Below, piece by piece: positions 2,008-47,914 of a DNA stretch of 64,000 nt. The stretch lies in the NCBI GenBank assembly GCA_963762985.1, contig CAVXMK010000014.1, positions 282,625 through 346,624 on the forward strand. The letters run 5' to 3'. The notes below the pieces were generated by a model. It saw only the letters and a program-made list of their open reading frames with translations, was not told where the DNA came from and searched no databases. The translations under genes were made by a program, and so were the position numbers. The DNA comes from an uncultured Chloroflexia bacterium (GTDB taxonomy: Bacteria; Chloroflexota; Chloroflexia; Thermomicrobiales; UBA6265). Position 1 is the first letter of the stretch, and each line of letters begins with the position of its first letter.

Positions 2008-3792
2008 ATGGACCAGTCGTCGTTCGACGAGTTAACACGTGTGCTTGGCGGAGCCGCATCGCGACGTCGTGCCCTGGGCGCGGTCATTGCCGCGGCGCTT
2101 GCCGGGAGAACGGCCGCGGAAATCATGGCCGCGCCCAGGAAGAAAGGCCGTGGCAAGGGCAAGGGTAAGGGCAAGAAAAAGAACAAGGGCCAGGGGAATA
2201 CTGGCAACGGGAATGACAATGGCAAGGGTAGCTGCGCCGGCTCGCCGCTGAGGCCCGGTCAGGACTTCCTGCGCTGCGATTTCTCCGGTCGAAACTTGCG
2301 GGGGCAGGATCTCCACTCCTCGTCGTTCAAGGATGTCGACTTTTCGTTCGCCGATCTCTGCGGCGTCGACTTTCACTCGGCGAGCTTCACCGAGACGGAC
2401 TTTATCGGAGCCAATCTCACCGACGCGAACTTCGACCAGTCCTCGCACGACGAAGTCAGCTTCGCCGAGGCGAATCTCGAAGGCGCCTCCTTCAAGGTGG
2501 CGACCTTCAGTGAGGTCGATTTCTCCGGGGCCAATCTCGCCCGCGCCAATTTCCGTGGCGCGACGCTCGACGAGGTCGATTTCTCCGGCGCTACCTTCTG
2601 CCAGACGATTCGGCCTGACGGCAGCACCGACAACCGCAATTGCGATATCTGCGACAACCTCTGCGGCACCTGCCAGAACTGCGACGAGGAGGACTGCGAA
2701 GCCCCCGACTGCTGCTCCGACCCGGAGACGGGCGACGGGGTATGCGTCGATACCGACACCGATCCACTGCACTGCGGAGCGTGCGGCGTGGCGTGCGGAG
2801 CCTCGTTGAACCCGTGCATCACCATCGAGTGCATCGATGCTGCATGCACCCCCGTCGAGGCCGCGGACGGCACGACCTGCGAGGAGGGCGAAGAGGCTGG
2901 CGTCTGCTGCGCCGCGGGCGATACGGTCACCTGCGTCGTCGGCGGCATCTGCTGCTCCAGCGCGCAGTGCGATGAGGGCGATACCTGCTGCAGCGGGCAG
3001 TGTGTCGATCTCCAGACCGATCCTGACAATTGCGGTGGCTGTGGCCCCGAGTTTGCCTGCGACGCAGGCGAAACCTGTTCCCAGGGCCAGTGCGTGTCGG
3101 ATGAGTGCGACAGCGGCGAAGTCCTCTGCGACAGCGTCTGCACGCCGGGCGTCTGCTGCGCGGATGACCAGTCCGGGCCGCAATGCCCCGCGGGGTTCAC
3201 CTGCATCGCCGGCGGCTGCGTCGGCGAGGGGCAGTTCCGCTTCGTGCTCAGGTGGGACGAGAACCCGCGGGATCTCGACACCCACGTCTGGTTGCCGCCA
3301 GCGACGCCGTACCACATCTATTTCGTCGACGAAGGCAGACTGGACCAGTTCCCCTTTGCGGAGCTGGACATCGACGACGTGACGAGTTTCGGTCCGGAAA
3401 CCGTCACGATCGCCCAATTGTTCGAGGGAACGTACCTCTACGCCGTGCACCTGTTCGCCGGCACGGGCACCATCGGCACGTCGGGCGCCGTGGTCGAGGT
3501 CTACGAGGGTGCGAACCTGGTCAACACCTTCCCTGTTCCCACGAACCTCTCCTGGGATCCGGACAACGGCCAGAACGTCTGGTGGAACGTCTTCAGCCTC
3601 ACCGTCGACGGGCAAGGGGACACGACGATCACCCCGATCAACACCGCCTCGGCGGATCCCGCGCCGTTCCCGGATACGCTGTCGCGTCGCGCCAGCGCCG
3701 AAAAATCCAAAAAGCCGGCCGATGGCGACCGCAACCGCAAGCGCGGCCGAGGCCGTGGCAAGGGCAAGAATCGGGGTCGTGCGCGGCGGTGA
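2008..3792 (+). CDS. Secreted multidomain protein: RR leader, polybasic tail, pentapeptide repeats, Stig1-like Cys modules, YfaP/DUF2135-like C-terminal domain, basic C-tail
   Basis: ATG at 2008 is preceded by GGGGGAG. Leader is MDQSSFDELTRVLGGAASRRRALGAVIAAALAG and the tail is KKGRGKGKGKGKKKNKG. A(D/N)LxG/F pentapeptide runs are present, along with the motif C-V-D-x-D-T-D-P-L-H-C-G-A-C-G-V-A-C. Start chosen inside track ORF 1930..3792. Confidence 0.85.
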   Translation: MDQSSFDELTRVLGGAASRRRALGAVIAAALAGRTAAEIMAAPRKKGRGKGKGKGKKKNKGQGNTGNGNDNGKGSCAGSPLRPGQDFLRCDFSGRNLRGQDLHSSSFKDVDFSFADLCGVDFHSASFTETDFIGANLTDANFDQSSHDEVSFAEANLEGASFKVATFSEVDFSGANLARANFRGATLDEVDFSGATFCQTIRPDGSTDNRNCDICDNLCGTCQNCDEEDCEAPDCCSDPETGDGVCVDTDTDPLHCGACGVACGASLNPCITIECIDAACTPVEAADGTTCEEGEEAGVCCAAGDTVTCVVGGICCSSAQCDEGDTCCSGQCVDLQTDPDNCGGCGPEFACDAGETCSQGQCVSDECDSGEVLCDSVCTPGVCCADDQSGPQCPAGFTCIAGGCVGEGQFRFVLRWDENPRDLDTHVWLPPATPYHIYFVDEGRLDQFPFAELDIDDVTSFGPETVTIAQLFEGTYLYAVHLFAGTGTIGTSGAVVEVYEGANLVNTFPVPTNLSWDPDNGQNVWWNVFSLTVDGQGDTTITPINTASADPAPFPDTLSRRASAEKSKKPADGDRNRKRGRGRGKGKNRGRARR

Positions 3793-3857
3793 GCCGACCG
3801 CGAGGCCATCGCCCCGCGCCTGCTCGATGACATAGCAGGAAGGCGACAGATCTGCCA

Positions 3858-3887
3858 CGAGGCCCGGGGAATGTTCCCCGGGCCTCG
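3858..3887 (+). terminator. Terminator-like hairpin shared with the paralog
   Basis: CGAGGCCCGGGGA-ATGT-TCCCCGGGCCTCG, a perfect 13-bp stem with no T-tract. An almost identical hairpin follows the paralog at 9097-9125. Confidence 0.6.
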
Positions 3888-3954
3888 GCGTGTTCGCGGA
3901 CAGGAGCCGTCGCGTTCAGCTCAATGGAATTCCGGGCCAGACTTCTGCCTGTCA

Positions 3955-4150
3955 GCAGCCCTTCTCCCCGCGCACTTGACAGGGGAGGTATCGAGTTGCC
4001 GGCGGCTGGCCCTCACCCCAACCGCCGAATGACCCTCACCCCAACCCCTCTCCCATTGCGATGGGAGAGGGGCTTTCGACGCTGAGTACCGGCGTCATAT
4101 AGCAATTACCTCTCCCTGTCAGCCCCGCGCACGGGAGAAGGGAGGGTTGA
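3955..4150. repeat. Mosaic of GC-rich palindromic intergenic elements
   Basis: Inverted copies of CCCTTCTCCC..TGACAGGG(G)AG(A)GGTA sit at about 3960-3992 and 4106-4141. Between them is the hairpin CCCTCTCCCA-TTGCGA-TGGGAGAGGG, part of a short variant of the CCCTCACCCCAACC element seen elsewhere. Confidence 0.6.
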
Positions 4151-4186
4151 CGTGGGGAGTGGTATGCAGAGGGAATGGAGACCGAT

Positions 4187-4213
4187 GGCGAAGGTTGCGA
4201 AGGTTGCGAAGGC
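4187..4213. repeat. 9-nt tandem repeat (GCGAAGGTT x about 3)
   Basis: GCGAAGGTTGCGAAGGTTGCGAAGGCT read directly. Confidence 0.6.
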
Positions 4214-4341
4214 TGGGGAACAGGGTGAGCGCGCAATCTTCGCACGAGGGCAAGGGGCGCCCCAGACCCGGTCCGCGTTTGCGGCACGGTTCATCCGCAT
4301 TCCGCGGTGCGCATTCGCGGGTTGACGCAGTGGCGATCCTT

Positions 4342-4349
4342 CCTGCGAA
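4342..4349. repeat. Target-site duplication, left copy (CCTGCGAA)
   Basis: The 8-bp direct repeat immediately flanks the IS left end. An identical octamer is at 5859-5866. Confidence 0.85.
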
Positions 4350-5858
4350 GTAAGAGTTCAGACCAAGGCAATTTGGGGAGATGGTCGTGGGGCGCGCAGG
4401 AGCGCGAGAAACTCCTCGACCGGGTCGAGGTCGCGCAGGGCCCAGGTGGCCACCAGCGAGTGCAAGAGCATGCGGGTGGTGCTGCCCGGCCCCGAGCGGG
4501 TGCCGCCGCTAATCTTGCGCGCCACCACCAGCGGGCGCAGGGCGCGCTCGGCGGCATTGTTGGTCGGGGGCACGGCCGGATCGGCGACGAAGGTGAACAA
4601 CTCGGCCTGATAGCGTTCGACGCGGGCGCACAGCACCGCCTGCGGGGTATCGGCCGGTTGCGCCCGGCAGTGGGCGACGAGCTCGGCCTGGAAGCGGTCG
4701 CGCGCCCGCTCGCGCAGGATGCCGTTCGTGCCCGCCGCCGTCGCCTCCGCCGCCCAGGCCACGGCGCGGTCGTAGACATCGCGCACCCCCGCCGCCCACG
4801 CCGCCACCCCCGGGTCGTCGGGATGGGCCAGGACCAGGTCATGGATGTCGCGCCACAGGTGCGCCCAGCACCGCTGCTGGACCCGCTCCAGCCGGTCGTA
4901 GGCCCCGAAAAAGTCGCTGACCACCACGCCCGTGCCCATCTCGCCCAGGAGGTCCTGCGCCACCGCCCCGGCGCGACTGCGCGCGAAGTGAAACACCTGG
5001 ATCGAGGGCGTGGTCAGCGTCCACACCCAGCCGGTGCGGCCGTTCTCGCGCCAACTCGTCTCATCGAGATGGACGACCGGGCTGGCCCGCGCCTCCCCCA
5101 GCAGCGCCTCGTAGGCCGGGCGTCCGGCCCGCGCCGCCTCCGCCAGCAGCGCGCTCAGCTCCCCCACCGACAGCCGCAGCCCCCAGACCCGCTGCAGCAG
5201 CCATTGCACCTGGGCCAGCGGCAGCCGCAGTTTGGTGCGCAGCGTCGCGACCCACGCCGCCACCGACCACCCCACCCGCCGGTGGGCGCCGGCCTGCTCC
5301 CCCAGATCCGGCATCGTCCCCCGGCTGCGCGTCCCGCAGCGGCGGCAGGTCCGCTCCAGCACCCGGTGCTCGACGACCGCAGCCCGCACCGGCGGCACCT
5401 CGATGAGCTGGCGGCGCCGCACCACCCGTCCCCGTGCCAGCGGGGCGGCACAGGCCGGACAGACCCTCGGCGCGTGCAGCACGATGCGGTCCGGACGCTC
5501 ACGGCGGCGCCCCGGCACGGGACGGCGCGGTCGCCGCGGCCGGCGCTGCTCGCGCACGACGACATTGGCCTTGACCCACGCGGGCGGACGTTTGGGCGGG
5601 GGAGCTGCGGGCGGCGACGGCCTCGCGCCCGCCTGGCCCCCCGCCGCGTGGTCGTCACCGCGCAGCGCGGCCACCTCGGCCCGCAGCGCGGCGTTCTCCG
5701 CGCTCAGTGCCTGCACCTGGGCCTGCAACTGCACCACCAGCTCCGCCAGTGCGTCGTAGCTGAGCCGCTCCGTGCCGCGGGTCATCTCCCGCCCCTTGCC
5801 CGTCCCTGCCGTGAGAACCGGCATTCTCCCACAATTTCGGGTCAGTCTGAACTCTTAC
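4350..5858 (-). mobile_element. IS66-family insertion sequence, single-ORF type, apparently intact (1509 bp)
   Basis: Perfect 14-bp terminal inverted repeats GTAAGAGTTCAGAC (4350-4363 and reverse complement 5845-5858). Subterminal similarity (..AATT.G.GGGAG), an 8-bp TSD and one complete transposase ORF. Confidence 0.9.
4358..5824 (-). CDS. IS66-family transposase
   Basis: N-terminal leucine-zipper-like LQAQVQALSAENAALRAEVAALR and zinc-finger CPACAAPL..CRRCG. Also HLDETSW, VVSDFFGAYD, QRCWAHLWRD and PPTNNAAERALRPLVVARK, all hallmark IS66 motifs recalled from memory. Confidence 0.9.
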   Translation of the reverse strand: MPVLTAGTGKGREMTRGTERLSYDALAELVVQLQAQVQALSAENAALRAEVAALRGDDHAAGGQAGARPSPPAAPPPKRPPAWVKANVVVREQRRPRRPRRPVPGRRRERPDRIVLHAPRVCPACAAPLARGRVVRRRQLIEVPPVRAAVVEHRVLERTCRRCGTRSRGTMPDLGEQAGAHRRVGWSVAAWVATLRTKLRLPLAQVQWLLQRVWGLRLSVGELSALLAEAARAGRPAYEALLGEARASPVVHLDETSWRENGRTGWVWTLTTPSIQVFHFARSRAGAVAQDLLGEMGTGVVVSDFFGAYDRLERVQQRCWAHLWRDIHDLVLAHPDDPGVAAWAAGVRDVYDRAVAWAAEATAAGTNGILRERARDRFQAELVAHCRAQPADTPQAVLCARVERYQAELFTFVADPAVPPTNNAAERALRPLVVARKISGGTRSGPGSTTRMLLHSLVATWALRDLDPVEEFLALLRAPRPSPQIALV

Positions 5859-5866
5859 CCTGCGAA
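5859..5866. repeat. Target-site duplication, right copy (CCTGCGAA)
   Basis: Identical to 4342-4349 and abuts the IS right end. Confidence 0.85.
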
Positions 5867-5894
5867 ATGGGCTGTCCTCAGTCCAGTGTTACCC

Positions 5895-5904
5895 GTGATA
5901 CGAT
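5895..5904 (+). promoter_or_regulatory. Candidate extended -10 promoter box (GTGATACGAT), paralog copy
   Basis: Same box and the same following GATGG-GGCCA..CACCGC.AGCGCC block as at 1873. The IS end lies only 37 nt upstream. Confidence 0.4.
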
Positions 5905-6034
5905 GATGGCGGCCATGCACCGCAAGCGCCGGGTCCGTGGGGAAGACGGACCGCGCGGCCAGGGGATGTGAGCCGGAATGTCGCGCGACGCGCGGCGCCG
6001 CCTCCGTTGGGACGGGTAGGGGGAGCGTATCCAG

Positions 6035-9000
6035 ATGGACAACGCTGCATTCGACCGGTTGGCGCGACTGCTGGGGAGCGGCGCGTCGCGGCGCCACACG
6101 TTGCGCGCGCTGATCACCGCGGCCCTGGTCGGGGGCACGGCCGACGAGCTGCTGGCCAAAGACAAGAAGAACCGCGCCAAGAACCGCAAGCAGGGCAACG
6201 ACCGGGACGGCAACAACGACAAAGACAAAGATAAGAACAAGGACCGGCGCAATGGCCGTGGCGGCCAGGCCAATGCCGAAGCGAAAAAGAAAAATCAGAA
6301 CAAGAACAAGCAGAAGCGCAAGAAGAAAAAGAAGAAGAACAGCAACGGCGGCAATAGCGGCGGCAACAGTTGCGCCGGAACCCCGCTGCAGCCCGGGCAG
6401 GACTTCGTCGATTGCGATTTCTCCGACGCCAATCTGCGCGGGGAGAATCTCAAAGGCTCCCTCTTCAAGAATGTCGACCTCACCGATGCCGATCTCTGCG
6501 GCGCCGATCTGGAATCGTCCAGCTTCGCCGACACTACACTGGTCGACGCCAATCTCACTGACGTCAACCTCGACTCGTCGTCGCACAGCAAGGGCGACTT
6601 CTCCGGCGCCAACCTCACCAACGCCACCTTCCGTGTCGCCACCTTCAGCAAGGTCGACTTCTCGGGAGCCGACCTCACCGGCGCCGACTTCACCGGCGCC
6701 ACCCTGGATGACACCGACTTCGCCGGCGCCGTCTTCTGCCGCACCATCCATCCCAACGGCAACGTCGACAACCGCGACTGCGACATCTGCGACAACGAGT
6801 GCGGTCTCTGCGAAGACTGCGACGACGAGGACTGCACCCCGCCCGACTGCTGCCCGAACCCGGAGGGACCAGGCGGCATCTGCGTCAATACCGACACCGA
6901 CCCGCTCAACTGCGGCGGCTGTGACGCCGCCTGCTTCACCAACCTGTCCAACGCCTGCGTCGATGGCGAGTGCGTCTGCGGCAACGAGCCGGAGTGCTCC
7001 GGTGGCGAGACCTGCTGCCGTGGCGAGGGCGGTGGCGCCACCCGCTGTATCGACACGGACACCGATCCCCTGCACTGCGGCGCCTGCGACGAGGCGTGCC
7101 TGATCCCCCTCAACCCATGCCTCTCCGTCGAGTGTCAGGGCGGTCAGTGCGTCGAAGTCGGCGCCGCGGACGGGACGCCCTGCGAACTCGAGGGCGACCC
7201 TGGCGTCTGCTGCGCCGCCGGCAGCTCCGTCACCTGCGTCGTCGGGACCGAATGCTGCTCCAACGCCCAGTGCGACTCCGGCGAGGCCTGCTGCGAAGGG
7301 CAGTGCATCGACGTCGAGGACGACCCCAACAACTGTGGCGGCTGCGACGTCATCTGCCTGACCCCGACAAACCCGTGCCTCACCAACGAGTGCATCGAGG
7401 GCGGATGCGTAGACGGGACGCTCTCGGACGGCACGGAGTGCGCGTTCGTTGACGACACCGGCGTCTGCTGCGCCTCGGGTGGGACCAGCACCTGCGTCTT
7501 CGGCGCTGAGTGCTGCACCGATGCGCAGTGCGGCACGGGCCAATCATGCTGTGGCGGCCAGTGTCTGAACACCCAGACCGACTTCGATCGCTGCGGGTCA
7601 TGCACCAACCAATGCCCGGCTACCAAGGCCGACGCCTGCGTTGGCGGGGACTGTGTCTGCGGCGAGGAGCCGGAGTGCAACGGCAACCAGACCTGTTGCC
7701 CCGGCGAGGGCGGCAATCCGGCCTCCTGCCTCAACCTCAATAACGACACCCTCAACTGCGGCGCCTGCGGATTCGCCTGCCTGATCCCAACGAACCCGTG
7801 CCTCGCCGTCGAGTGCCAGGAGGGCGGATGCGTCGAGGTGCCCGTACTGAATGGCTCGGCCTGCGCGGTGGGCGAAGTGGGGGGCATCTGCTGCGCCTCG
7901 GGCGAGACGTCCGCCTGCATCGTGGGGGCGGAATGCTGCGACAGCTCGGTCTGTGAGGCGACCGAAGCCTGCTGCGAAAATCAGTGCATCGACGTTCAGG
8001 ACAACTTCGACAACTGCGGTGAGTGCGGCAACAGTTGCACGGACTCGGTGAATCAATGTTTCCACCGCGACTGTGTCCAGGGCGAGTGCCAAACCCTCCC
8101 CGACGAGGATGGCGAGCCGTGCTTCGCGGGCGAAGAGGGCATCTGCTGCGCCTCGACCCCAACCACCTCCATCTGCATCGGCGGCGGCCAGTGCTGCACC
8201 GACCTCGAATGCCCGGAGGGCGATAGCTGCTGCGATAACACCTGCTTCGAGACCAGCTCCGATTTCGACCACTGCGGGGGCTGTGACGGCTGCGACCCCG
8301 ACTTGGCAGACACCTGCGTCGAGGGCACGTGCGTCTGCGGGACCACGGGAGCCGCATGCGGGGCCGGCGAGACCTGCTGCAACGGCCAGTGCGTCGACAC
8401 CGACACCGACACCGACAACTGCGGCACGTGCGGCAACGCCTGCGATCCCCCGTTGAACTCGTGCAATACCGTCCTGTGCCTCGAAGGTACGTGCAACAAC
8501 TTCGCGGACCCCGACGGCACGATCTGCGTGGAGGGTCAGGACGAGGGCGTCTGCTGCTTCGACGACAACGCCGCCGTCTGCCTGGCGGGCGCCCAGTGCT
8601 GCTCCGACTCCGGATGCGACGTCACCGAAGCCTGCTGCGACAACCAGTGCGTCAACCCCAATACCGACTTCGACCACTGCGGCATTTGCACGAACGCCTG
8701 CATAGAGGGGAAGGCCGACGCCTGCTTCAACGGCCAGTGCGTCTGCGGGTCCGAGTTCCAATGCTCGGAAACCGAGACCTGCTGCAACGGCCAGTGCGTG
8801 GACACCAGCAATGATCTTGAGAACTGCGGCTCCTGTGGCGAGACATGTGGTGCAAACGAAACGTGCGTCGAGAGCGGGTGCGTTTGCCCGGGCATCCCCT
8901 GCGAGGGTCAATGTCTGGCGGAAGGTCCCGACGTCTGCTGCCTCCTCGCCGACTGCGAGACTCGCCTCTGCTATTTGCTTCTCGGCTGCAACGGCAACGT

Positions 9001-9088
9001 CTGCGAATACCAACAGCTCGCCGACAACACCGATTGCGGCTTCGGCGGTACGTGTGAAGGCGGCGTGTGCATCGGGCAGTCTGAATAA
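6035..9088 (+). CDS. Giant secreted Cys-rich protein: RR leader, about 75-aa polybasic tail, pentapeptide repeats, about 10 Stig1-like Cys modules
   Basis: Leader MDNAAFDRLARLLGSGASRRHTLRALITAALVGG. Tail is KDKKNRAKNRKQG...KKKNQNKNKQKRKKKKKKNSNGG. The pentapeptide block is collinear with the 2008 paralog. The motif D-x-x-(N/H)-C-G-x-C-x-x-x-C occurs about 12 times. GGGGGAG precedes the ATG. Confidence 0.9.
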   Translation: MDNAAFDRLARLLGSGASRRHTLRALITAALVGGTADELLAKDKKNRAKNRKQGNDRDGNNDKDKDKNKDRRNGRGGQANAEAKKKNQNKNKQKRKKKKKKNSNGGNSGGNSCAGTPLQPGQDFVDCDFSDANLRGENLKGSLFKNVDLTDADLCGADLESSSFADTTLVDANLTDVNLDSSSHSKGDFSGANLTNATFRVATFSKVDFSGADLTGADFTGATLDDTDFAGAVFCRTIHPNGNVDNRDCDICDNECGLCEDCDDEDCTPPDCCPNPEGPGGICVNTDTDPLNCGGCDAACFTNLSNACVDGECVCGNEPECSGGETCCRGEGGGATRCIDTDTDPLHCGACDEACLIPLNPCLSVECQGGQCVEVGAADGTPCELEGDPGVCCAAGSSVTCVVGTECCSNAQCDSGEACCEGQCIDVEDDPNNCGGCDVICLTPTNPCLTNECIEGGCVDGTLSDGTECAFVDDTGVCCASGGTSTCVFGAECCTDAQCGTGQSCCGGQCLNTQTDFDRCGSCTNQCPATKADACVGGDCVCGEEPECNGNQTCCPGEGGNPASCLNLNNDTLNCGACGFACLIPTNPCLAVECQEGGCVEVPVLNGSACAVGEVGGICCASGETSACIVGAECCDSSVCEATEACCENQCIDVQDNFDNCGECGNSCTDSVNQCFHRDCVQGECQTLPDEDGEPCFAGEEGICCASTPTTSICIGGGQCCTDLECPEGDSCCDNTCFETSSDFDHCGGCDGCDPDLADTCVEGTCVCGTTGAACGAGETCCNGQCVDTDTDTDNCGTCGNACDPPLNSCNTVLCLEGTCNNFADPDGTICVEGQDEGVCCFDDNAAVCLAGAQCCSDSGCDVTEACCDNQCVNPNTDFDHCGICTNACIEGKADACFNGQCVCGSEFQCSETETCCNGQCVDTSNDLENCGSCGETCGANETCVESGCVCPGIPCEGQCLAEGPDVCCLLADCETRLCYLLLGCNGNVCEYQQLADNTDCGFGGTCEGGVCIGQSE

Positions 9089-11799: not shown

Positions 11800-12138
11800 T
11801 CAATCCATCGTGCCGGGCACGCAGAATCCCCCGTCGCAGACGAGATCGTCTTCGCCGTCGCAGCAATCGCGCGTATCGAGGCAGCGCTTGCCCTGGGTGC
11901 TGCACCGGCAGCGGCCCTTCTTCTTGCCCCGGCGCGTGCGGCAGCGCCCGGAGCAGCATTGTCCGTTCCGCTTGCAGCGGCTGGTGACGCCCCGACACCC
12001 GTTGCTTTGCGCGGTCGATGGCGTCGCGTCGAGCGCACCGCCAGCGGCCGAGGCCACGGCCACGGCAGCGAGCATCTCTCGCCGGGTCCGCGCTCGAGCC
12101 AGCGCGGTCAGCATCGCGTCGAACCGGTCATTGCTCAC
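11800..12138 (-). CDS. Small secreted knottin-like Cys-rich protein with FD..L..RR leader
   Basis: GTG at 12138 is preceded by AGGAGG (12145-12150) at 6-nt spacing. Leader VSNDRFDAMLTALARARTRREMLAAVAVASAAGG. Cys pattern C-x6-C-x5-CC-x3-C-x10-C with a basic loop RTRRGKKKGR. Confidence 0.7.
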   Translation of the reverse strand: MSNDRFDAMLTALARARTRREMLAAVAVASAAGGALDATPSTAQSNGCRGVTSRCKRNGQCCSGRCRTRRGKKKGRCRCSTQGKRCLDTRDCCDGEDDLVCDGGFCVPGTMD

Positions 12139-12392
12139 GTGAGACCTCCTCGCCAGGCGACTCCGGTAACGAAAAACCAGCCAATTTTGCCCCAATCCCC
12201 AAATTGGGCTCTATTATGACTTGCTGAAACGCTGCGTAAGTGTCACTATGCCACTGACCCGCGTATCGCCGCGCATCGGCCCCATCTGGGCCGGAGGAGC
12301 AGTGGAGGTAAACAGCGCCAGGTGGGCGCGAATTGCTACGCCGTTCGCGGGTAAACACGACACCCCTCGTGGTGGAGGGAGGGAGCAGCACG

Positions 12393-43619: not shown

Positions 43620-44807
43620 ATGAACGACGCACGTTTCGCCACCCTCATCCGCGCCCTGACGGGTGGGGCGGTGACCAGGCGTACGCTTGGCCAGGGCCTC
43701 GCGGGTGGCGCCATCGCGGCCGGTCTTGCCCAGTTCAGGTTGGACACCATCGGCGCCAGGCGCCGGAAAAAGAAGCGAAAGAAAGGCAAGGGCAAGAAGC
43801 GGCGCGGCGGCGGCAATGGCGGCGGGAACAGCGATCGTTGCCAGTTCGAGATCTGCGAAGGGGCGTGCGTCGATCTCGACACTGACGCGAACAACTGCGG
43901 CGCCTGCGGCGACGCCTGCCCGGACGGTTCGCCCTGCGTTGGTGGCTTGTGCGCGTTCGCCGCCGGCGGGGAAGGCGACGGAGAAGGCGAGTTCGACCGG
44001 CCATTCGGCATCGCATTCGACAGCAACGGATTCGGCTACGTCGCCGACGCCAACAACCGGCGTGTCCACCGATATTTGGTTGGCGATTTCTTTGGAACGT
44101 TCGGCGAGTTCGGTGAAGGCGACGGGCAATTCTTGCGGCCAATCGGCGTGGCGGTCGTGAACGAGACCGGCGAAGTCTTCGTTAGCGACTCCGATCTCAG
44201 CCGGATCCAGAAGTTCGACGCGAACGGCGACTTCCTGCTCGGCTTCGGGAACTTCGGCAACGGCTCCGGTCAGTTCAAGAACCCGCTCGCGCTGGCCTTC
44301 GACCAACAGGCGAACCAAGTGTTCGTGGCCGACACGAACAACCACCGCATCTCTCGCCTCAGCGCCACGCTCTTCCCCCTGGAGCGGTTCGGGCAATTCG
44401 GCAGCGGCGAGGGCCAGTTCAACGGCCCGCAAGGCATCGCCATCGACGCGAATCGAAACATCTTCGTGGCCGACACCGGGAACAACCGCATCCAGGTCTT
44501 CGACCTGCGGCGGGAATTCGTGCGGGCGTTCGGCGAGCAGGGCGCCGGGCCGGGGCAGTTCAACGGGCCGACCGGCGTGGCGGTCGATGACCAGGGGAAT
44601 CTCTTCGTCGTCGACACCGGGAACAACCGCATCCAGCAGTTCTCGGTCGATGGGACGTTCCGCAAAACCTTTGGCCGCGCCGGCACCGGGCTCGGCGAGT
44701 TCGACGAGCCGTTCGGCATCGGGATCGACGGCAGCGGGTTCCTCAATGTCGTCGATACGAGGAATGAGCGCGTGCAGTTCTTCATCCCGGCGCGATTCCT
44801 CGACTGA
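43620..44807 (+). CDS. Secreted NHL-repeat beta-propeller protein 1 (RR leader, polybasic tail, one Stig1-like Cys module, six NHL blades)
   Basis: GGAAGGA precedes the ATG. MNDARFATLIRALTGGAVTRRTLGQGLAGGAIAAGLA, then IGA|RRRKKKRKKGKGKKRRGGGNGGGN, then CVDLDTDANNCGACGDAC. Blades such as FNGPQGIAIDANRNIFVADTGNNRIQVF. Confidence 0.9.
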   Translation: MNDARFATLIRALTGGAVTRRTLGQGLAGGAIAAGLAQFRLDTIGARRRKKKRKKGKGKKRRGGGNGGGNSDRCQFEICEGACVDLDTDANNCGACGDACPDGSPCVGGLCAFAAGGEGDGEGEFDRPFGIAFDSNGFGYVADANNRRVHRYLVGDFFGTFGEFGEGDGQFLRPIGVAVVNETGEVFVSDSDLSRIQKFDANGDFLLGFGNFGNGSGQFKNPLALAFDQQANQVFVADTNNHRISRLSATLFPLERFGQFGSGEGQFNGPQGIAIDANRNIFVADTGNNRIQVFDLRREFVRAFGEQGAGPGQFNGPTGVAVDDQGNLFVVDTGNNRIQQFSVDGTFRKTFGRAGTGLGEFDEPFGIGIDGSGFLNVVDTRNERVQFFIPARFLD

Positions 44808-44862
44808 TCGCGGTTGGAGGCGCCCACGGGCGCCCCGATGTCGGAAGCCTCAGGAGGACATT

Positions 44863-46095
44863 GTGGAGACAACGCCATTAGCCAATCTCGTGCGCGTCGT
44901 CATGGATGGCGTCTATACGCGGCGCGGCCTTGGTCAGCGGTTCAGCTCTGCTGCGCTCGCTTCCGCGCTTGCCCTGACGGTGGAAGACATCGACGCCCGC
45001 CAGCGCGGCGGCAAGAAGCGTCGCCGAAAAAGGAAGAAGCGCGGCGGCAACAACGGCGGTGGGAACGACCGCTGCCCATTCGAGCGCTGCGGAGGGCAAT
45101 GTCTCGACCTCGACAACGACCCAACCAACTGCGGAGCGTGCGGGCGCGCATGCGACATGGACGCCGTCTGCGTCGCCGGCTTCTGCGCGGTCGCCGCTGG
45201 CAGCCGCGGCAGCGGCGGCAAGCAATTCGATGGGCCGTTCGGCGCCGGCGTCACAAGCGACGGTCTCGTCCTCGTTGCGGACTCGAACAACCGGCGCATT
45301 CAGATCACCGGCGGCGGCAGCTTCTTCGGTTCGTTTGGCGAGTCCGGCGAAGGCGACGGGCAGTTTCTGGACCCGGCGGGCGTGGCGGTCGGCCCGGGGA
45401 CGGAAATCTACGTGACCGACATTGCGCGCCACGACATTCAGCGTTTCGGCTCCGGTCAACGATTCGATGTCGGGACGGGCGGGTTCGGCTCCGAACTGGG
45501 CCAATTCAACACCCCGACAGGCGTCGCCGTCGACCAAGCCACCGGCGAGGTGTGGGTCGCCGACAGAAACAACCACAGCCTTCAGGTGCTCAGCGCCGAC
45601 CTCGTCGCGCGCCGGCGGATCGGTCGTCTCGGGAGCGGCGACGGCGAGTTCAACGAGCCGTTCGGGGTCGCATTCGACGACGTCAACGGTCACGTCGTCG
45701 TGGCCGACAGCGCGAACAACCGCATCCAGATCCTCGACCGGGAGGGGCGCTTCGTCCGCGCGTTCGGCCGCCAGGGGACCGGGAACGGCGAGTTCGACAT
45801 CCCGGTGGCGCTCGCGCTCGACACGGCCGGGGACATCTTCGTGGTGGACCTCTTGAATGACCGGGTCCAACAGTTTTCCCCCGAGGGAACGTTTCGCAAG
45901 GCGTTCGGCCGAACCGGGAGCGGAATCGGCGAGTTCAGCCTGCCGGTCGGCATCGCCATCAGCTCGCGGGACGTCATCACCGTCGTCGATCAAGGCAACG
46001 ACCGCATCCAGGTCTTCGTCCCGGCGGGGTCGGACTTCGAAGCCCAGTCTCGCGCGAAGCGTCGGTGCCAAGGGCGCCAAGGAGTTGAGAGATGA
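44863..46095 (+). CDS. Secreted NHL-repeat beta-propeller protein 2
   Basis: GTG at 44863 lies 5 nt after AGGAGG. VETTPLANLVRVVMDGVYTRRGLGQRF.., then IDA|RQRGGKKRRRKRKKRGGNNGGGN, then CLDLDNDPTNCGACGRAC, then six NHL blades. Confidence 0.85.
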   Translation: METTPLANLVRVVMDGVYTRRGLGQRFSSAALASALALTVEDIDARQRGGKKRRRKRKKRGGNNGGGNDRCPFERCGGQCLDLDNDPTNCGACGRACDMDAVCVAGFCAVAAGSRGSGGKQFDGPFGAGVTSDGLVLVADSNNRRIQITGGGSFFGSFGESGEGDGQFLDPAGVAVGPGTEIYVTDIARHDIQRFGSGQRFDVGTGGFGSELGQFNTPTGVAVDQATGEVWVADRNNHSLQVLSADLVARRRIGRLGSGDGEFNEPFGVAFDDVNGHVVVADSANNRIQILDREGRFVRAFGRQGTGNGEFDIPVALALDTAGDIFVVDLLNDRVQQFSPEGTFRKAFGRTGSGIGEFSLPVGIAISSRDVITVVDQGNDRIQVFVPAGSDFEAQSRAKRRCQGRQGVER

Positions 46096-47345
46096 GACAT
46101 GCACGGTTCGATTCGCTGGTCCGTGAGTTGGCGGCTGGTTCGCTCACGCGCCGCGGCGTCGCTCAGGGGTTCGGCGGAGCGGTGTTGGCCTCCACACTTG
46201 CCCTGACTGGCTTGGCCGAGACCGAGGCCAAGCGGCGTCGTGGGAAGAAGCGTCGCAAAAAGAGAGGCAGCACGCGCCGCGGCGGCAACGACCGTTGTCA
46301 GTTCACTCGCTGCGACGGGCGGTGCGTCAACTTCGAAACCGACCCGGACAACTGCGGCGCCTGCGGCGACGCCTGCCCGGACGATCTGCCGTGCGTCGCC
46401 GGCCTCTGCGTGCTCGCGCTCGGCGGTCCCGACGATGATTTCGCCGGCCTCGGTAGCCCGGGCGGCGTCGCCGTGAACGCCGATGGGGTCGGCGTGGTCG
46501 CGGACAGAACCAACGAGCGCATCTTGCGCTTCCAGCGCGGCGAGCGGATCGAGTTCCTCGGCTCGTTCGGCGAGCGCGGCGAGGAAGACGGCCAGTTCCT
46601 GGAGCCGTCCGGCGTGGCGATCGACGGCGACGCCATCTTCGTGACCGACGCCGACCGGCACCGCATCCAGCGCTTCGACCTCCAGGGGAATTTTGAAGCA
46701 GCGGGCGGGAGCTTTGGCTCCGGGCTCGGGCAATTCGATTCCCCGCAGGGCATCGCCATCGATCCCCCGACCGGTGAGCTGTTCGTGGTCGATACGTTCA
46801 ACCACAGCGTGCAGCGGCTCGCCGCCGACTTCTCGCCGCTGAGCCGGATCGGACGCGAGGGCAACGGGAACGGCGAGTTCAGCTTTCCGTCCGGGATCGC
46901 CATCGACGGCGACGGCGACCTGGTCGTGGCCGATGTCCTCAACCACCGCATCCAGGTGCTCGACCGCGACGGGAACTTCATTCGCGCCTTCGGCCGCCGA
47001 GGGGACGGCGCCGGCGAGTTCAACGAGCCGCTCTCCGTGGCGGTCGACGCGGCCGGCGACATCTTCGTCGTCGATAACCAGAACCGCGGCATCCAGCGCT
47101 TCACCGGCGACGGGCAGTTCGTCAAGACGTTCGGCCGCCAGGGAACGGGGGTGGGTGAGTTCGAGTTTCCGTTCGGCATCGCCGTCGATTCCCTGGGGAT
47201 CATCACCGTCACCGATGTGGGAAGCCACCCCCTCCAATTGTTCTTCCCGGCGAACGTCTTCGCGGCGGGAGAAGGGATCGCAACCGCGAAAGATGAACTG
47301 CTCGGGGACCGTCCCGCGAGGAAGCAACGAAGGAGGACATCGTGA
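46092..47345 (+). CDS. Secreted NHL-repeat beta-propeller protein 3
   Basis: ATGA start/stop overlap with the previous gene. MRHARFDSLVRELAAGSLTRRGVAQGF.., then TEA|KRRRGKKRRKKRGSTRRGGN, then CVNFETDPDNCGACGDAC, then six NHL blades. Confidence 0.9.
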   Translation: MRHARFDSLVRELAAGSLTRRGVAQGFGGAVLASTLALTGLAETEAKRRRGKKRRKKRGSTRRGGNDRCQFTRCDGRCVNFETDPDNCGACGDACPDDLPCVAGLCVLALGGPDDDFAGLGSPGGVAVNADGVGVVADRTNERILRFQRGERIEFLGSFGERGEEDGQFLEPSGVAIDGDAIFVTDADRHRIQRFDLQGNFEAAGGSFGSGLGQFDSPQGIAIDPPTGELFVVDTFNHSVQRLAADFSPLSRIGREGNGNGEFSFPSGIAIDGDGDLVVADVLNHRIQVLDRDGNFIRAFGRRGDGAGEFNEPLSVAVDAAGDIFVVDNQNRGIQRFTGDGQFVKTFGRQGTGVGEFEFPFGIAVDSLGIITVTDVGSHPLQLFFPANVFAAGEGIATAKDELLGDRPARKQRRRTS

Positions 47346-47914
47346 ACGCATCCCATTTCGGCGATTTTGCTCGGGTGCTGACGGACGGCGCGATCACGCG
47401 GCGGGCGGTCATGCGGGGCATGGCCGGGGCGCTTGGCGCGGCTGGGCTATCGCATGCGGGATTGACCAGTCTCCAAGCCAAAAAGGGTAAGCGGCGCAAG
47501 CAACCATCGCCGGTGAACCGGTTCGGCTGCCGCAACGTCGGTGTCGCGTGCTCGAGCGCCAATCAGTGCTGCTCCGGCATCTGCGAGGGCGGGCGCGGTA
47601 AGGACAAGAACGGCAAGAAGCGGAGAAGGACGTGCCGGGCGCACGACACGGGGGGCTGCAAGGTTTCCCAGGATTCCTGCTCGACGAGCACGAACTTCAC
47701 CTGCACCACGATCACCGGTGAGGCAGGATTCTGCCACCTGACCACCGGCAACGCCCCCTACTGTGCGTTCGATGGGATTGATTCGGAGTGCACGAGGGAC
47801 GAGGACTGCATTGACCTTTGCGGCCCCCAGGCGGCCTGCAGCGTCTGCGCCGAGCCGGGGTTGGCGGCGTTCCGCTTCTGCGCCGGTCCCAGCAGATGCG
47901 AAGGTTTTGCATGA
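47342..47914 (+). CDS. Secreted knottin-like Cys-rich protein with the same leader and polybasic tail
   Basis: GTGA overlap with the previous gene, with GGAGG upstream. VNASHFGDFARVLTDGAITRRAVMRGMAGALGAAGLS, then LQA|KKGKRRKQPS. Pattern C-x6-C-x5-CC-x3-C-x16-C with basic loop RGKDKNGKKRRRT, then a second Cys-rich half. Confidence 0.8.
   Translation: MNASHFGDFARVLTDGAITRRAVMRGMAGALGAAGLSHAGLTSLQAKKGKRRKQPSPVNRFGCRNVGVACSSANQCCSGICEGGRGKDKNGKKRRRTCRAHDTGGCKVSQDSCSTSTNFTCTTITGEAGFCHLTTGNAPYCAFDGIDSECTRDEDCIDLCGPQAACSVCAEPGLAAFRFCAGPSRCEGFA

Follow-up and report, generated by a model that had tools for sequence, protein, structure and literature searches.

Twin-arginine translocation (Tat) is taught as the route for folded, often cofactor-bearing proteins, and tests of whether its cargo must be folded have relied mostly on engineered constructs. 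Here, we describe natural proteins in which Tat-type leaders precede extremely cysteine-rich chains, starting from two giant open reading frames (ORFs), ORF-A and ORF-B, in a stretch of 64,000 nucleotides (the window; C14:282625-346624, approximately 68% G+C) from an uncultured soil bacterium of the class Chloroflexia, order Thermomicrobiales. The leader carries a twin arginine (RR) behind a conserved n-region of 18 residues and ahead of a weak hydrophobic core (h-region), and is followed by a tract rich in lysine and arginine (the K/R tract). The coupling of the RR leader to Cys-rich cargo is genome-wide and far above chance. Five independent sequence tests agree in predicting that the leaders are Tat signals. 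The reading that we favour, with modest confidence, is that the leaders are genuine Tat signals and that the hydrophobic-poor cargo would be exported by Tat in the reduced state and oxidised outside the cell. A first-pass annotation of the two genes, made from the sequence alone, had pointed to the conflict between a Tat-type leader and a disulfide-rich payload and had offered three explanations: that the leaders are not true Tat signals, that the Cys modules fold around metals in the cytoplasm, or that the lineage tolerates cytoplasmic disulfides. The conflict is present in the sequence, but its premise was overstated, as Tat tolerates hydrophobic-poor unfolded cargo (PMC13673990, PMC6708511), and the best-supported reading, export of reduced cargo with oxidation outside, was omitted from the three. 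Most of the conflict would be accounted for by this tolerance together with an outward-facing enzyme of the MauE type. For Chloroflexota, a literature search brought up no paper in which a Tat leader is combined with a polybasic tract or with Cys-rich cargo.

The design was surveyed by a six-frame scan of the assembly (6.7 Mb, scored 75% complete) for an RR and an h-region near the ORF start, with a tract defined as at least six K/R per 12-residue window behind the h-region; ORF calling, start choice and the set of Sec-like proteins used for comparison are all heuristic. The scan yields 744 ORFs with an RR and an h-region, 162 of them with a K/R tract, and approximately 110-160 ORFs of the genome have the combined leader and tract design. 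Anchored on the RR, the leaders give the logo M-D-x-x-R-F-D-x-L-[AT]-R-x-L-x5-[ST]-R-R-x-[AL]-L-x-x-L-x-G. The Shine-Dalgarno sequence can be recognised in translation immediately upstream of the Met, and the start codon is thereby fixed. The tract is a family-wide feature behind an AxA-type site, with a median length of 14 amino acids and a net charge of +9; it is missing from the first-pass annotation and bears on the choice of pathway. Cys makes up 10.3% of the cargo behind leader and tract, 0.9% of plain RR cargo and 1.3% genome-wide. Among the 143 Cys-dense ORFs (at least eight Cys and at least 6% Cys), at least 109 bear the RR leader and none was found to bear a Sec-type leader; the others are variants of the leader (RK, TRLR), frames cut at the N-terminus, artefacts of a wrong frame and small cytoplasmic zinc or iron-sulfur proteins. 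The pairing of RR leaders with Cys-rich payloads that had been noticed in the window is thus real and systematic. The payload size given at the time, tens to about 150 Cys, describes the two giant proteins (42 and 150) but not the NHL proteins (8-10) or the knottin-like proteins (12 and 18).

Several properties of the leaders argue for Tat. With its S-R-R columns masked, a hidden Markov model (HMM) of the leader retrieves 126 ORFs, of which approximately 117 carry RR and three RK; the RR stands at the expected place in 106 of the 126 and is off by one or two residues in most others. Because the RR is kept in ORFs found with an RR-masked model, it is under selection; the motif reads SRRR in ORF-A and SRRH in ORF-B. 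The hydrophobicity of the h-region was expressed on the Kyte-Doolittle scale for the best ten-residue window (KD10max), and Tat and Sec types were compared within the SBP_bac_5 paralogues, which belong to the same exported family, and with a stricter Sec-like set. KD10max is 2.10 ± 0.37 in the Cys-rich family (2.49 in ORF-A and 2.02 in ORF-B), 1.84 ± 0.31 in the RR leaders of SBP_bac_5 proteins and 3.08 ± 0.20 in their non-RR, Sec-like leaders (p = 5e-6), and Ala and Gly make up a fraction of 0.49 of the h-region in the family compared with 0.34 in Sec-type leaders. Tat signals are known to be less hydrophobic than Sec signals (PMC7317946), and since the family lies close to the RR leaders and well under the Sec-like ones, it matches this published distinction. 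In the family, the 20 residues past the h-region carry a net charge of +6.8 and are positive in 98% of members, compared with a charge of -0.6 for plain RR cargo and -1.7 for Sec-like cargo; a basic c-region or early mature region blocks Sec, and in combination with low hydrophobicity Sec aborts (PMC7317946). Of 102 ORFs, 64 have an AxA-type site immediately ahead of the tract and 84 have one within three residues of it, and the candidate cleavage site has Ala (55%) or Gly (17%) at -1 and Ala, Thr, Gly or Val at -3. An h-region comparison of the kind proposed in the first-pass annotation places the leaders near the RR leaders of SBP_bac_5 proteins, and the alternative given there that they are not true Tat signals is disfavoured by the conservation of the masked RR, the Tat-like h-region and an early mature charge of about +7.

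The leaders resemble those of class I Tat substrates such as Escherichia coli TorA, SufI and AmiA, with SRRxFLK-type signals, in having a twin arginine before a weak Gly/Ala-rich h-region, basic residues past the h-region and an AxA-type site, in a genome that encodes TatA and TatC. They differ in an n-region of fixed length (18 residues) that conserves MDxxRFDxLxRxL, in carrying a K/R tract of 10-70 residues, which would remain on the mature protein, where class I substrates have a single Sec-avoidance residue, and in the failure of curated Tat HMMs to score them. Their cargo is likewise distinct, with 10-19% Cys and no cofactor family signature.

The genome also points to a general use of Tat. 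The search for tat genes that the first-pass annotation had suggested found one intact copy of tatC (275 amino acids, 184 bits) and three tatA-family genes; the nearest named relatives of TatC are from Thermomicrobiales metagenome-assembled genomes (MAGs), at 77-88% identity. RR leaders are present on approximately 29 of roughly 40 SBP_bac_5 paralogues and Sec-like leaders on eight. The multicopper oxidases of the genome, a classical cofactor cargo, bear RR leaders as well. Since these two groups carry RR leaders and tatA and tatC are present, Tat would be a general export route here. Molybdoenzymes were considered as a positive control for Tat and dropped, because those of this genome lack leaders; multicopper oxidases were used in their place. 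The RR leaders of the SBP_bac_5 proteins, which occur on about three quarters of the paralogues, have long n-regions. The assembly contains split genes; approximately 10-15% of the SBP_bac_5 paralogues look split, which suggests assembly indels or pseudogenes, and frameshifts elsewhere may be assembly errors.

The span 2008-9088 of the window holds the two giant genes in the same orientation, with an IS66 transposase between them on the opposite strand. Both giant genes are real; their G+C content at third codon positions is 0.81-0.86 and full-length homologues from metagenomes (40-95% identity) keep the leader and tract in all cases. ORF-A (2008-3792, plus strand; 594 amino acids) is supported by its translation and by full-length homologues of the same layout, and its ATG at 2008 has GGGGGAG just 5' of it. 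It contains 42 Cys (44 in the longer stop-to-stop frame), and ORF-B contains 150. The N-termini read MDQSSFDELTRVLGGAASRRRALGAVIAAALAGRTAAEIMAAPRKKGRGKGKGKGKKK in ORF-A and MDNAAFDRLARLLGSGASRRHTLRALITAALVGGTADELLAKDKKNRAKNRK in ORF-B. The two leaders are alike. Both start with MDxxxFDxLxRxLG..ASRR, their h-region is weak and an AxA-like site precedes the K/R tract.

The domain order of ORF-A is leader, polybasic tract, pentapeptide β-helix, Stig1-like Cys modules, β-sandwich and polybasic C-tail. The leader (residues 1-41; 2008-2130, plus strand) fits the genome-wide logo and is the best-scoring match of leader model A1 (C14:284632-284757); it consists of the n-region MDQSSFDELTRVLGGAAS, the RR at residues 19-20, an A/G-rich h-region and the c-region EIMA. 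The polybasic tract (residues 42-75; 2131-2232, plus strand) is defined by composition and comprises 34 residues of K/R/G character with a net charge of +11 and zero hydrophobic residues. The β-helix (residues 76-210; 2233-2637, plus strand) matches PF00805, PF13599 and PF13576. AlphaFold2 (AF2) models it with a predicted local distance difference test (pLDDT) score of 86-95, and its Foldseek matches are pentapeptide structures, the best superposition being with the thylakoid-lumen pentapeptide protein 3n90 (root-mean-square deviation 1.1 Å, 34% identity). The Cys-module region follows (residues 211-405, 195 amino acids; 2638-3222, plus strand; NF041328, 38.8 bits), with 19.5% Cys, a net charge of -39, 14% hydrophobic residues and one His. 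The C-terminal β-sandwich (residues 406-560; 3223-3687, plus strand; AF2 pLDDT about 70-90) has no Cys and is YfaP/TerD-like, with TerD-like Foldseek matches 2qz7 and 2qng; a Pfam search of it gave no match, and the relative P0088 carries the UniRef name YfaP family. The AF2 model of ORF-A is reliable for the β-helix and the β-sandwich only. The gene ends with a polybasic C-tail (net +13, ...KNRGRARR) and the stop codon (3688-3792, plus strand). This tail is kept in homologues P0002-P0020 and, together with the N-terminal tract, caps the acidic Cys-rich body of ORF-A with cationic tracts at both ends.

ORF-B (6035-9088, plus strand; 1017 amino acids), whose homologues P0007-P0012 share the leader, comprises a leader, a 71-residue polybasic tract, a pentapeptide β-helix and a 769-residue array of Stig1-like modules. 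Its leader (residues 1-41; 6035-6157, plus strand; leader-model match C14:288659-288781) begins with MDNAAFDRLARLLGSGASRRH and has the h-region LRALITAALVGG and the c-region ELLA. The tract, again defined by composition (residues 42-112; 6158-6370, plus strand), has a net charge of +20. The pentapeptide-repeat domain (residues 113-248; 6371-6778, plus strand) scores 75.2 bits against PF00805 and that of ORF-A 78.7 bits, so that both pass the cut-off of 20.2. The Cys-module array (residues 249-1017; 6779-9085, plus strand; PF04885, 35.2 bits; NF041328, 76.6 bits) has 19% Cys, a net charge of -128, 15% hydrophobic residues and four His, and is composed of 135-residue super-repeats with 26 Cys apiece. 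In both proteins the pentapeptide β-helix is the first folded domain past the tract, and it resembles the likewise extracytoplasmic thylakoid-lumen pentapeptide proteins (Arabidopsis TL15, 3n90; Cyanothece Rfr, 2f3l and 2g0y). Unlike ORF-A and ORF-B, the lumen proteins are single-domain and have neither Cys arrays nor K/R tracts.

The modules match Stig1 (PF04885), a Pfam family that takes its name from a plant stigma protein, and the MXAN_6577-like model NF041328. With PF04885, whose cut-off is 24.1 bits, ORF-B passes and ORF-A, at 17.0 bits, falls short, and for NF041328 (cut-off 100 bits) both stay below. The repeat consists of an 86-residue module with 16 invariant Cys alternating with a module of 49-53 residues with ten Cys; besides Cys, Gly and Asn alone are conserved, and CC doublets are frequent. 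The even Cys number of each module and the scarcity of other conserved residues fit a disulfide-scaffolded mini-domain. The recurring C-x2-C-x3-C spacing singled out in the first-pass annotation as a possible metal ligand is real, but it occurs only once per module, as the CGxCxxxC that opens it (ten copies in ORF-B compared with 5.1 ± 2.2 in shuffles, and two in ORF-A). The modules share the signature CxDxxxDxxNCGxCGxxC, with Cys and Gly alone conserved, with Stig1/MXAN_6577-like repeat proteins. The relatives in other phyla carry Sec or lipoprotein leaders, in contrast to the RR leaders and K/R tracts found here. Because those lineages export Stig1-type repeats in this way, the module would need no cytoplasmic loading. 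A relative of the Cys module was found in a Thermomicrobiales MAG, and a search of the module profile against PDB sequences gave no match.

The parity of Cys counts separates the classes of cargo. By the even-Cys bias method (PMC2823432), even and odd counts are 89:17 in the Cys-rich family (p = 6e-13), 49:16 in Sec-like cargo (p = 5e-5) and 129:138 in plain RR cargo (not significant). Among the SBP_bac_5 paralogues, Sec-type proteins hold two or six Cys and the RR-type show no Cys pattern. The even bias of the Sec-like cargo suggests that the organism forms disulfides outside the cell, and the lack of bias in ordinary RR cargo that this cargo behaves as Tat cargo folded in the cytoplasm. The Cys-rich family, set apart by its parity, would accordingly be a subclass of its own that depends on disulfides and bears a Tat-type signal, and its cargo looks disulfide-bonded rather than metal-bound.

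Outward-facing oxidation in this genome probably depends on MauE. DsbB was found neither in the genome nor in 25 relatives, and VKOR was not found in the genome but is present in 16 of the 25. Two MauE genes exceed the PF07291 cut-off and contain the CXC-F-G motif, which has been defined as the active site of a MauE that replaces DsbB in E. coli (preprint 10.64898/2026.03.05.709764): CHCFG (C15:600322-600888; 110.8 bits) and CGCFG (C14:274357-274971; 78.4 bits), the latter about 7.7 kb upstream of the window. MauE was also present in five of five relatives tested, two of which lack VKOR and carry 26-40 or more copies of the leader. The idea of a genome without any outward-facing oxidase was dropped once MauE had been found. 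Some 6.4-8.3 kb upstream of where the window starts, at C14:274357-276254, MauE, a thioredoxin-fold gene (CEPC) that looks frameshifted and an RR-leader Cys-rich gene (202 amino acids, about 25 Cys, no Pfam match) lie in a row. The arrangement recalls MauA, a small protein with six disulfides that depends on MauE and the thioredoxin-like MauD to mature (preprint 10.64898/2026.03.05.709764). The giant proteins and modules show no MauA family match, no tryptophan tryptophylquinone (TTQ) or quinone context is present, and the design spans more than 100 unrelated cargoes, whereas MauA is one enzyme subunit. The long leader of MauA carries a twin arginine; no open paper linking MauA to a twin-arginine signal was found.

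In the same-genus genome G088, VKOR follows a membrane-anchored DsbA-like gene whose CxxC motif has an in-frame TGA at the position of the first Cys (WGDYT-U-PGC). At the syntenic site here (C15:270476-271198) the DsbA-like gene keeps the TGA, its sequence is spread over three frames and VKOR is absent, with the conserved flanks 468 bp apart compared with 809 bp in G088. As the TGA is conserved in G088, the gene may encode a DsbA with selenocysteine. A tRNA-Sec gene (anticodon TCA; C5:222373-222469; Aragorn) and a molybdopterin-enzyme match with two in-frame TGA codons (C11:60784-62316) are consistent with the use of selenoproteins. Three other DsbA-like proteins (CPHC and CPWC motifs) have no signal peptides; one of them (CPHC; C21:69761-70225) lies directly downstream of a peroxiredoxin-like gene and could be a cytoplasmic thiol oxidoreductase.

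We propose that the leaders are a lineage-specific extended Tat signal, MDxxRFDxLxRxL-x5-[ST]RR, and that Tat may be a main export route in this Thermomicrobiales bacterium. The Cys-rich proteins would be committed to Tat by the polycationic head of the mature chain, because the Sec translocon cannot pass a polycationic tract. The acidic, very hydrophilic modules, which have hardly any hydrophobic core, would probably stay unfolded in the reducing cytoplasm without exposing hydrophobic surface of the rejected kind, and the pentapeptide β-helix and the β-sandwich could fold before export. Cleavage at the AxA-type site would follow transport, and disulfides would then form outside the cell, with a MauE-type membrane oxidase and thioredoxin-fold partners as the likely catalyst; relatives also have VKOR and a DsbA-like protein. 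Tat rejects exposed hydrophobic surface rather than the absence of a globular fold; unfolded hydrophilic cargo of small size, unstructured linkers of great length and cargo with a high pI are let through (PMC13673990, PMC6708511). Tat export without prior disulfide formation is reported for some proteins, according to the citation of Alanen (2015) in PMC6708511. Hydrophobic residues (ILVFMWY) amount to 14-15% in the Cys modules versus 32% in ordinary RR cargo. Tat export of reduced cargo is the most economical reading because the modules are hydrophobic-poor and the K/R head would make Sec unusable. The cargo is comparable to engineered unfolded Tat constructs in being hydrophilic and hydrophobic-poor, properties with which a chain need not be globular to pass Tat. 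The constructs, however, measure about 100-120 residues, and the cargo here is natural, numbers more than 100 per genome and includes Cys modules of 195-769 residues.

Several observations weigh against export in the reduced state under a Tat signal. The tolerance of E. coli for unstructured cargo drops past about 100-120 residues, and scFv (single-chain variable fragment) and PhoA need oxidation before Tat export (PMC6708511); the Cys arrays of 195 residues in ORF-A and 769 residues in ORF-B exceed this tolerance. The three signal-less DsbA-like proteins leave cytoplasmic oxidation possible. AF2 models the modules with low to moderate confidence, at a pLDDT of 59 for the 135-residue super-repeat and 25-74 for the Cys region of ORF-A, so that their disulfide pairing is putative. 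Finally, the curated Tat models TIGR01409 and PF10518 gave no match to the extended leaders at E ≤ 10; a plain RR leader of the window reaches 12.4 bits (cut-off 16.7), which indicates that the models are weak for this lineage.

The size of ORF-B and the classical Tat rule would be accommodated if the modules folded in the cytoplasm, either around a metal (all-Cys Zn or metallothionein-like, possibly as a temporary template) or through cytoplasmic disulfides, and crossed the membrane in compact form. This appears unlikely to us. The C-x2-C-x3-C at each module start and the frequent CC doublets are compatible with a metal, but Cys and Gly alone are invariant, His is near-absent, Cys counts are strongly even and the same module type, in a family named after a stigma protein, occurs under Sec or lipoprotein leaders in other phyla, so that the metal-loaded modules of the first-pass annotation are disfavoured. 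Its cytoplasmic disulfides fare somewhat differently. The search for cytoplasmic disulfide-forming enzymes did find the three signal-less DsbA-like proteins, one beside a peroxiredoxin, and the absence of VKOR from the syntenic site, with the adjoining DsbA-like gene frameshifted, is in keeping with oxidation inside. Plain RR cargo nevertheless lacks an even-Cys bias and gives no sign of a general cytoplasmic disulfide chemistry, and the MauE-type enzymes that are present act outward. An Erv1/ALR-type oxidase gave no match in the genome, which says little, since the search matched no control genome either.

Many RR-containing signal peptides of Bacillus route through Sec, and Cys-rich cargo is of a kind that normally uses Sec; the failure of the Tat HMMs to score the leaders would also be explained if the proteins took this route and were oxidised outside in the ordinary way. 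Such a route is improbable, given that an early mature charge of +7 to +20 behind a weak h-region is reported to abort Sec (PMC7317946), that the RR is nearly invariant, that the genome's own Sec-like leaders have clearly higher hydrophobicity and a net negative charge behind them, and that no Cys-dense protein carries one. Least probable is that the proteins are not exported, the h-region being an N-out/C-in anchor that leaves the tract in the cytoplasm under the positive-inside rule and the modules as cytoplasmic metal binders. The C-terminal flank of the h-region is indeed far more positive than the N-terminal flank, but the uncharged stretch averages 16.8 residues and is A/G-rich, too short and weak for a stable anchor, and an AxA-type site lies directly ahead of the tract. 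Moreover, the same leader type is found on solute-binding proteins and NHL propellers, both extracytoplasmic families, and the Cys counts are strongly even.

Beyond the export of reduced cargo by Tat, a bolder proposal can be made, which we hold tentatively as possible but short of probable: Thermomicrobiales may use Tat to export in bulk natural chains that are reduced and non-globular, including Cys arrays of 200-770 residues, and the leader and K/R head may form a device dedicated to targeting and retaining disulfide-dependent surface proteins, which MauE-type enzymes would then oxidise outside. If so, these proteins would form the first class of unfolded Tat cargo that occurs naturally, with a size far past the tolerance measured in E. 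coli. The lineage supplies more than 100 natural test substrates per genome for the folding requirement of Tat. They join a Tat-type signal to cargo whose final fold would need many disulfides, and Sec-type and plain RR cargo in the same genome provide internal controls. Should the leaders prove Tat-dependent, the natural range of Tat cargo would widen, the extreme Sec-avoidance tract would gain a physiological rationale and Tat export would be linked to the newly described MauE route of oxidative folding. The leader and tract could also serve as a tag for secreting cationic, disulfide-rich peptides.

The design is concentrated in one lineage. The leader model matches 43 of 81 genomes of the order, with expansions of 15-65 or more copies mainly within the window's own family and 3-8 copies in several closed genomes; beyond the order it matches only six of 150 genomes of the phylum, with one or two copies each. 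Within the window, four more genes share the n-region of 18 residues, the RR and the K/R tract; they lie at 43620-47914 (plus strand) and encode three NHL propellers with 8-10 Cys each and one 18-Cys mini-protein. A small knottin-like protein with 12 Cys and an FDxM/L..RTRR leader is encoded at 11800-12195 (minus strand). The IS66-family transposase (4358-5824, minus strand; PF03050, 147 bits, and a zf-IS66 domain) separates the two paralogous giant genes and does not belong to the export design. A copy of a dispersed repeat with CCCTCACCCCAAC-type units, of which blastn finds more than 40 similar copies genome-wide, occupies positions 4005-4076, 3' of ORF-A and beyond a terminator-like hairpin at 3860-3887.

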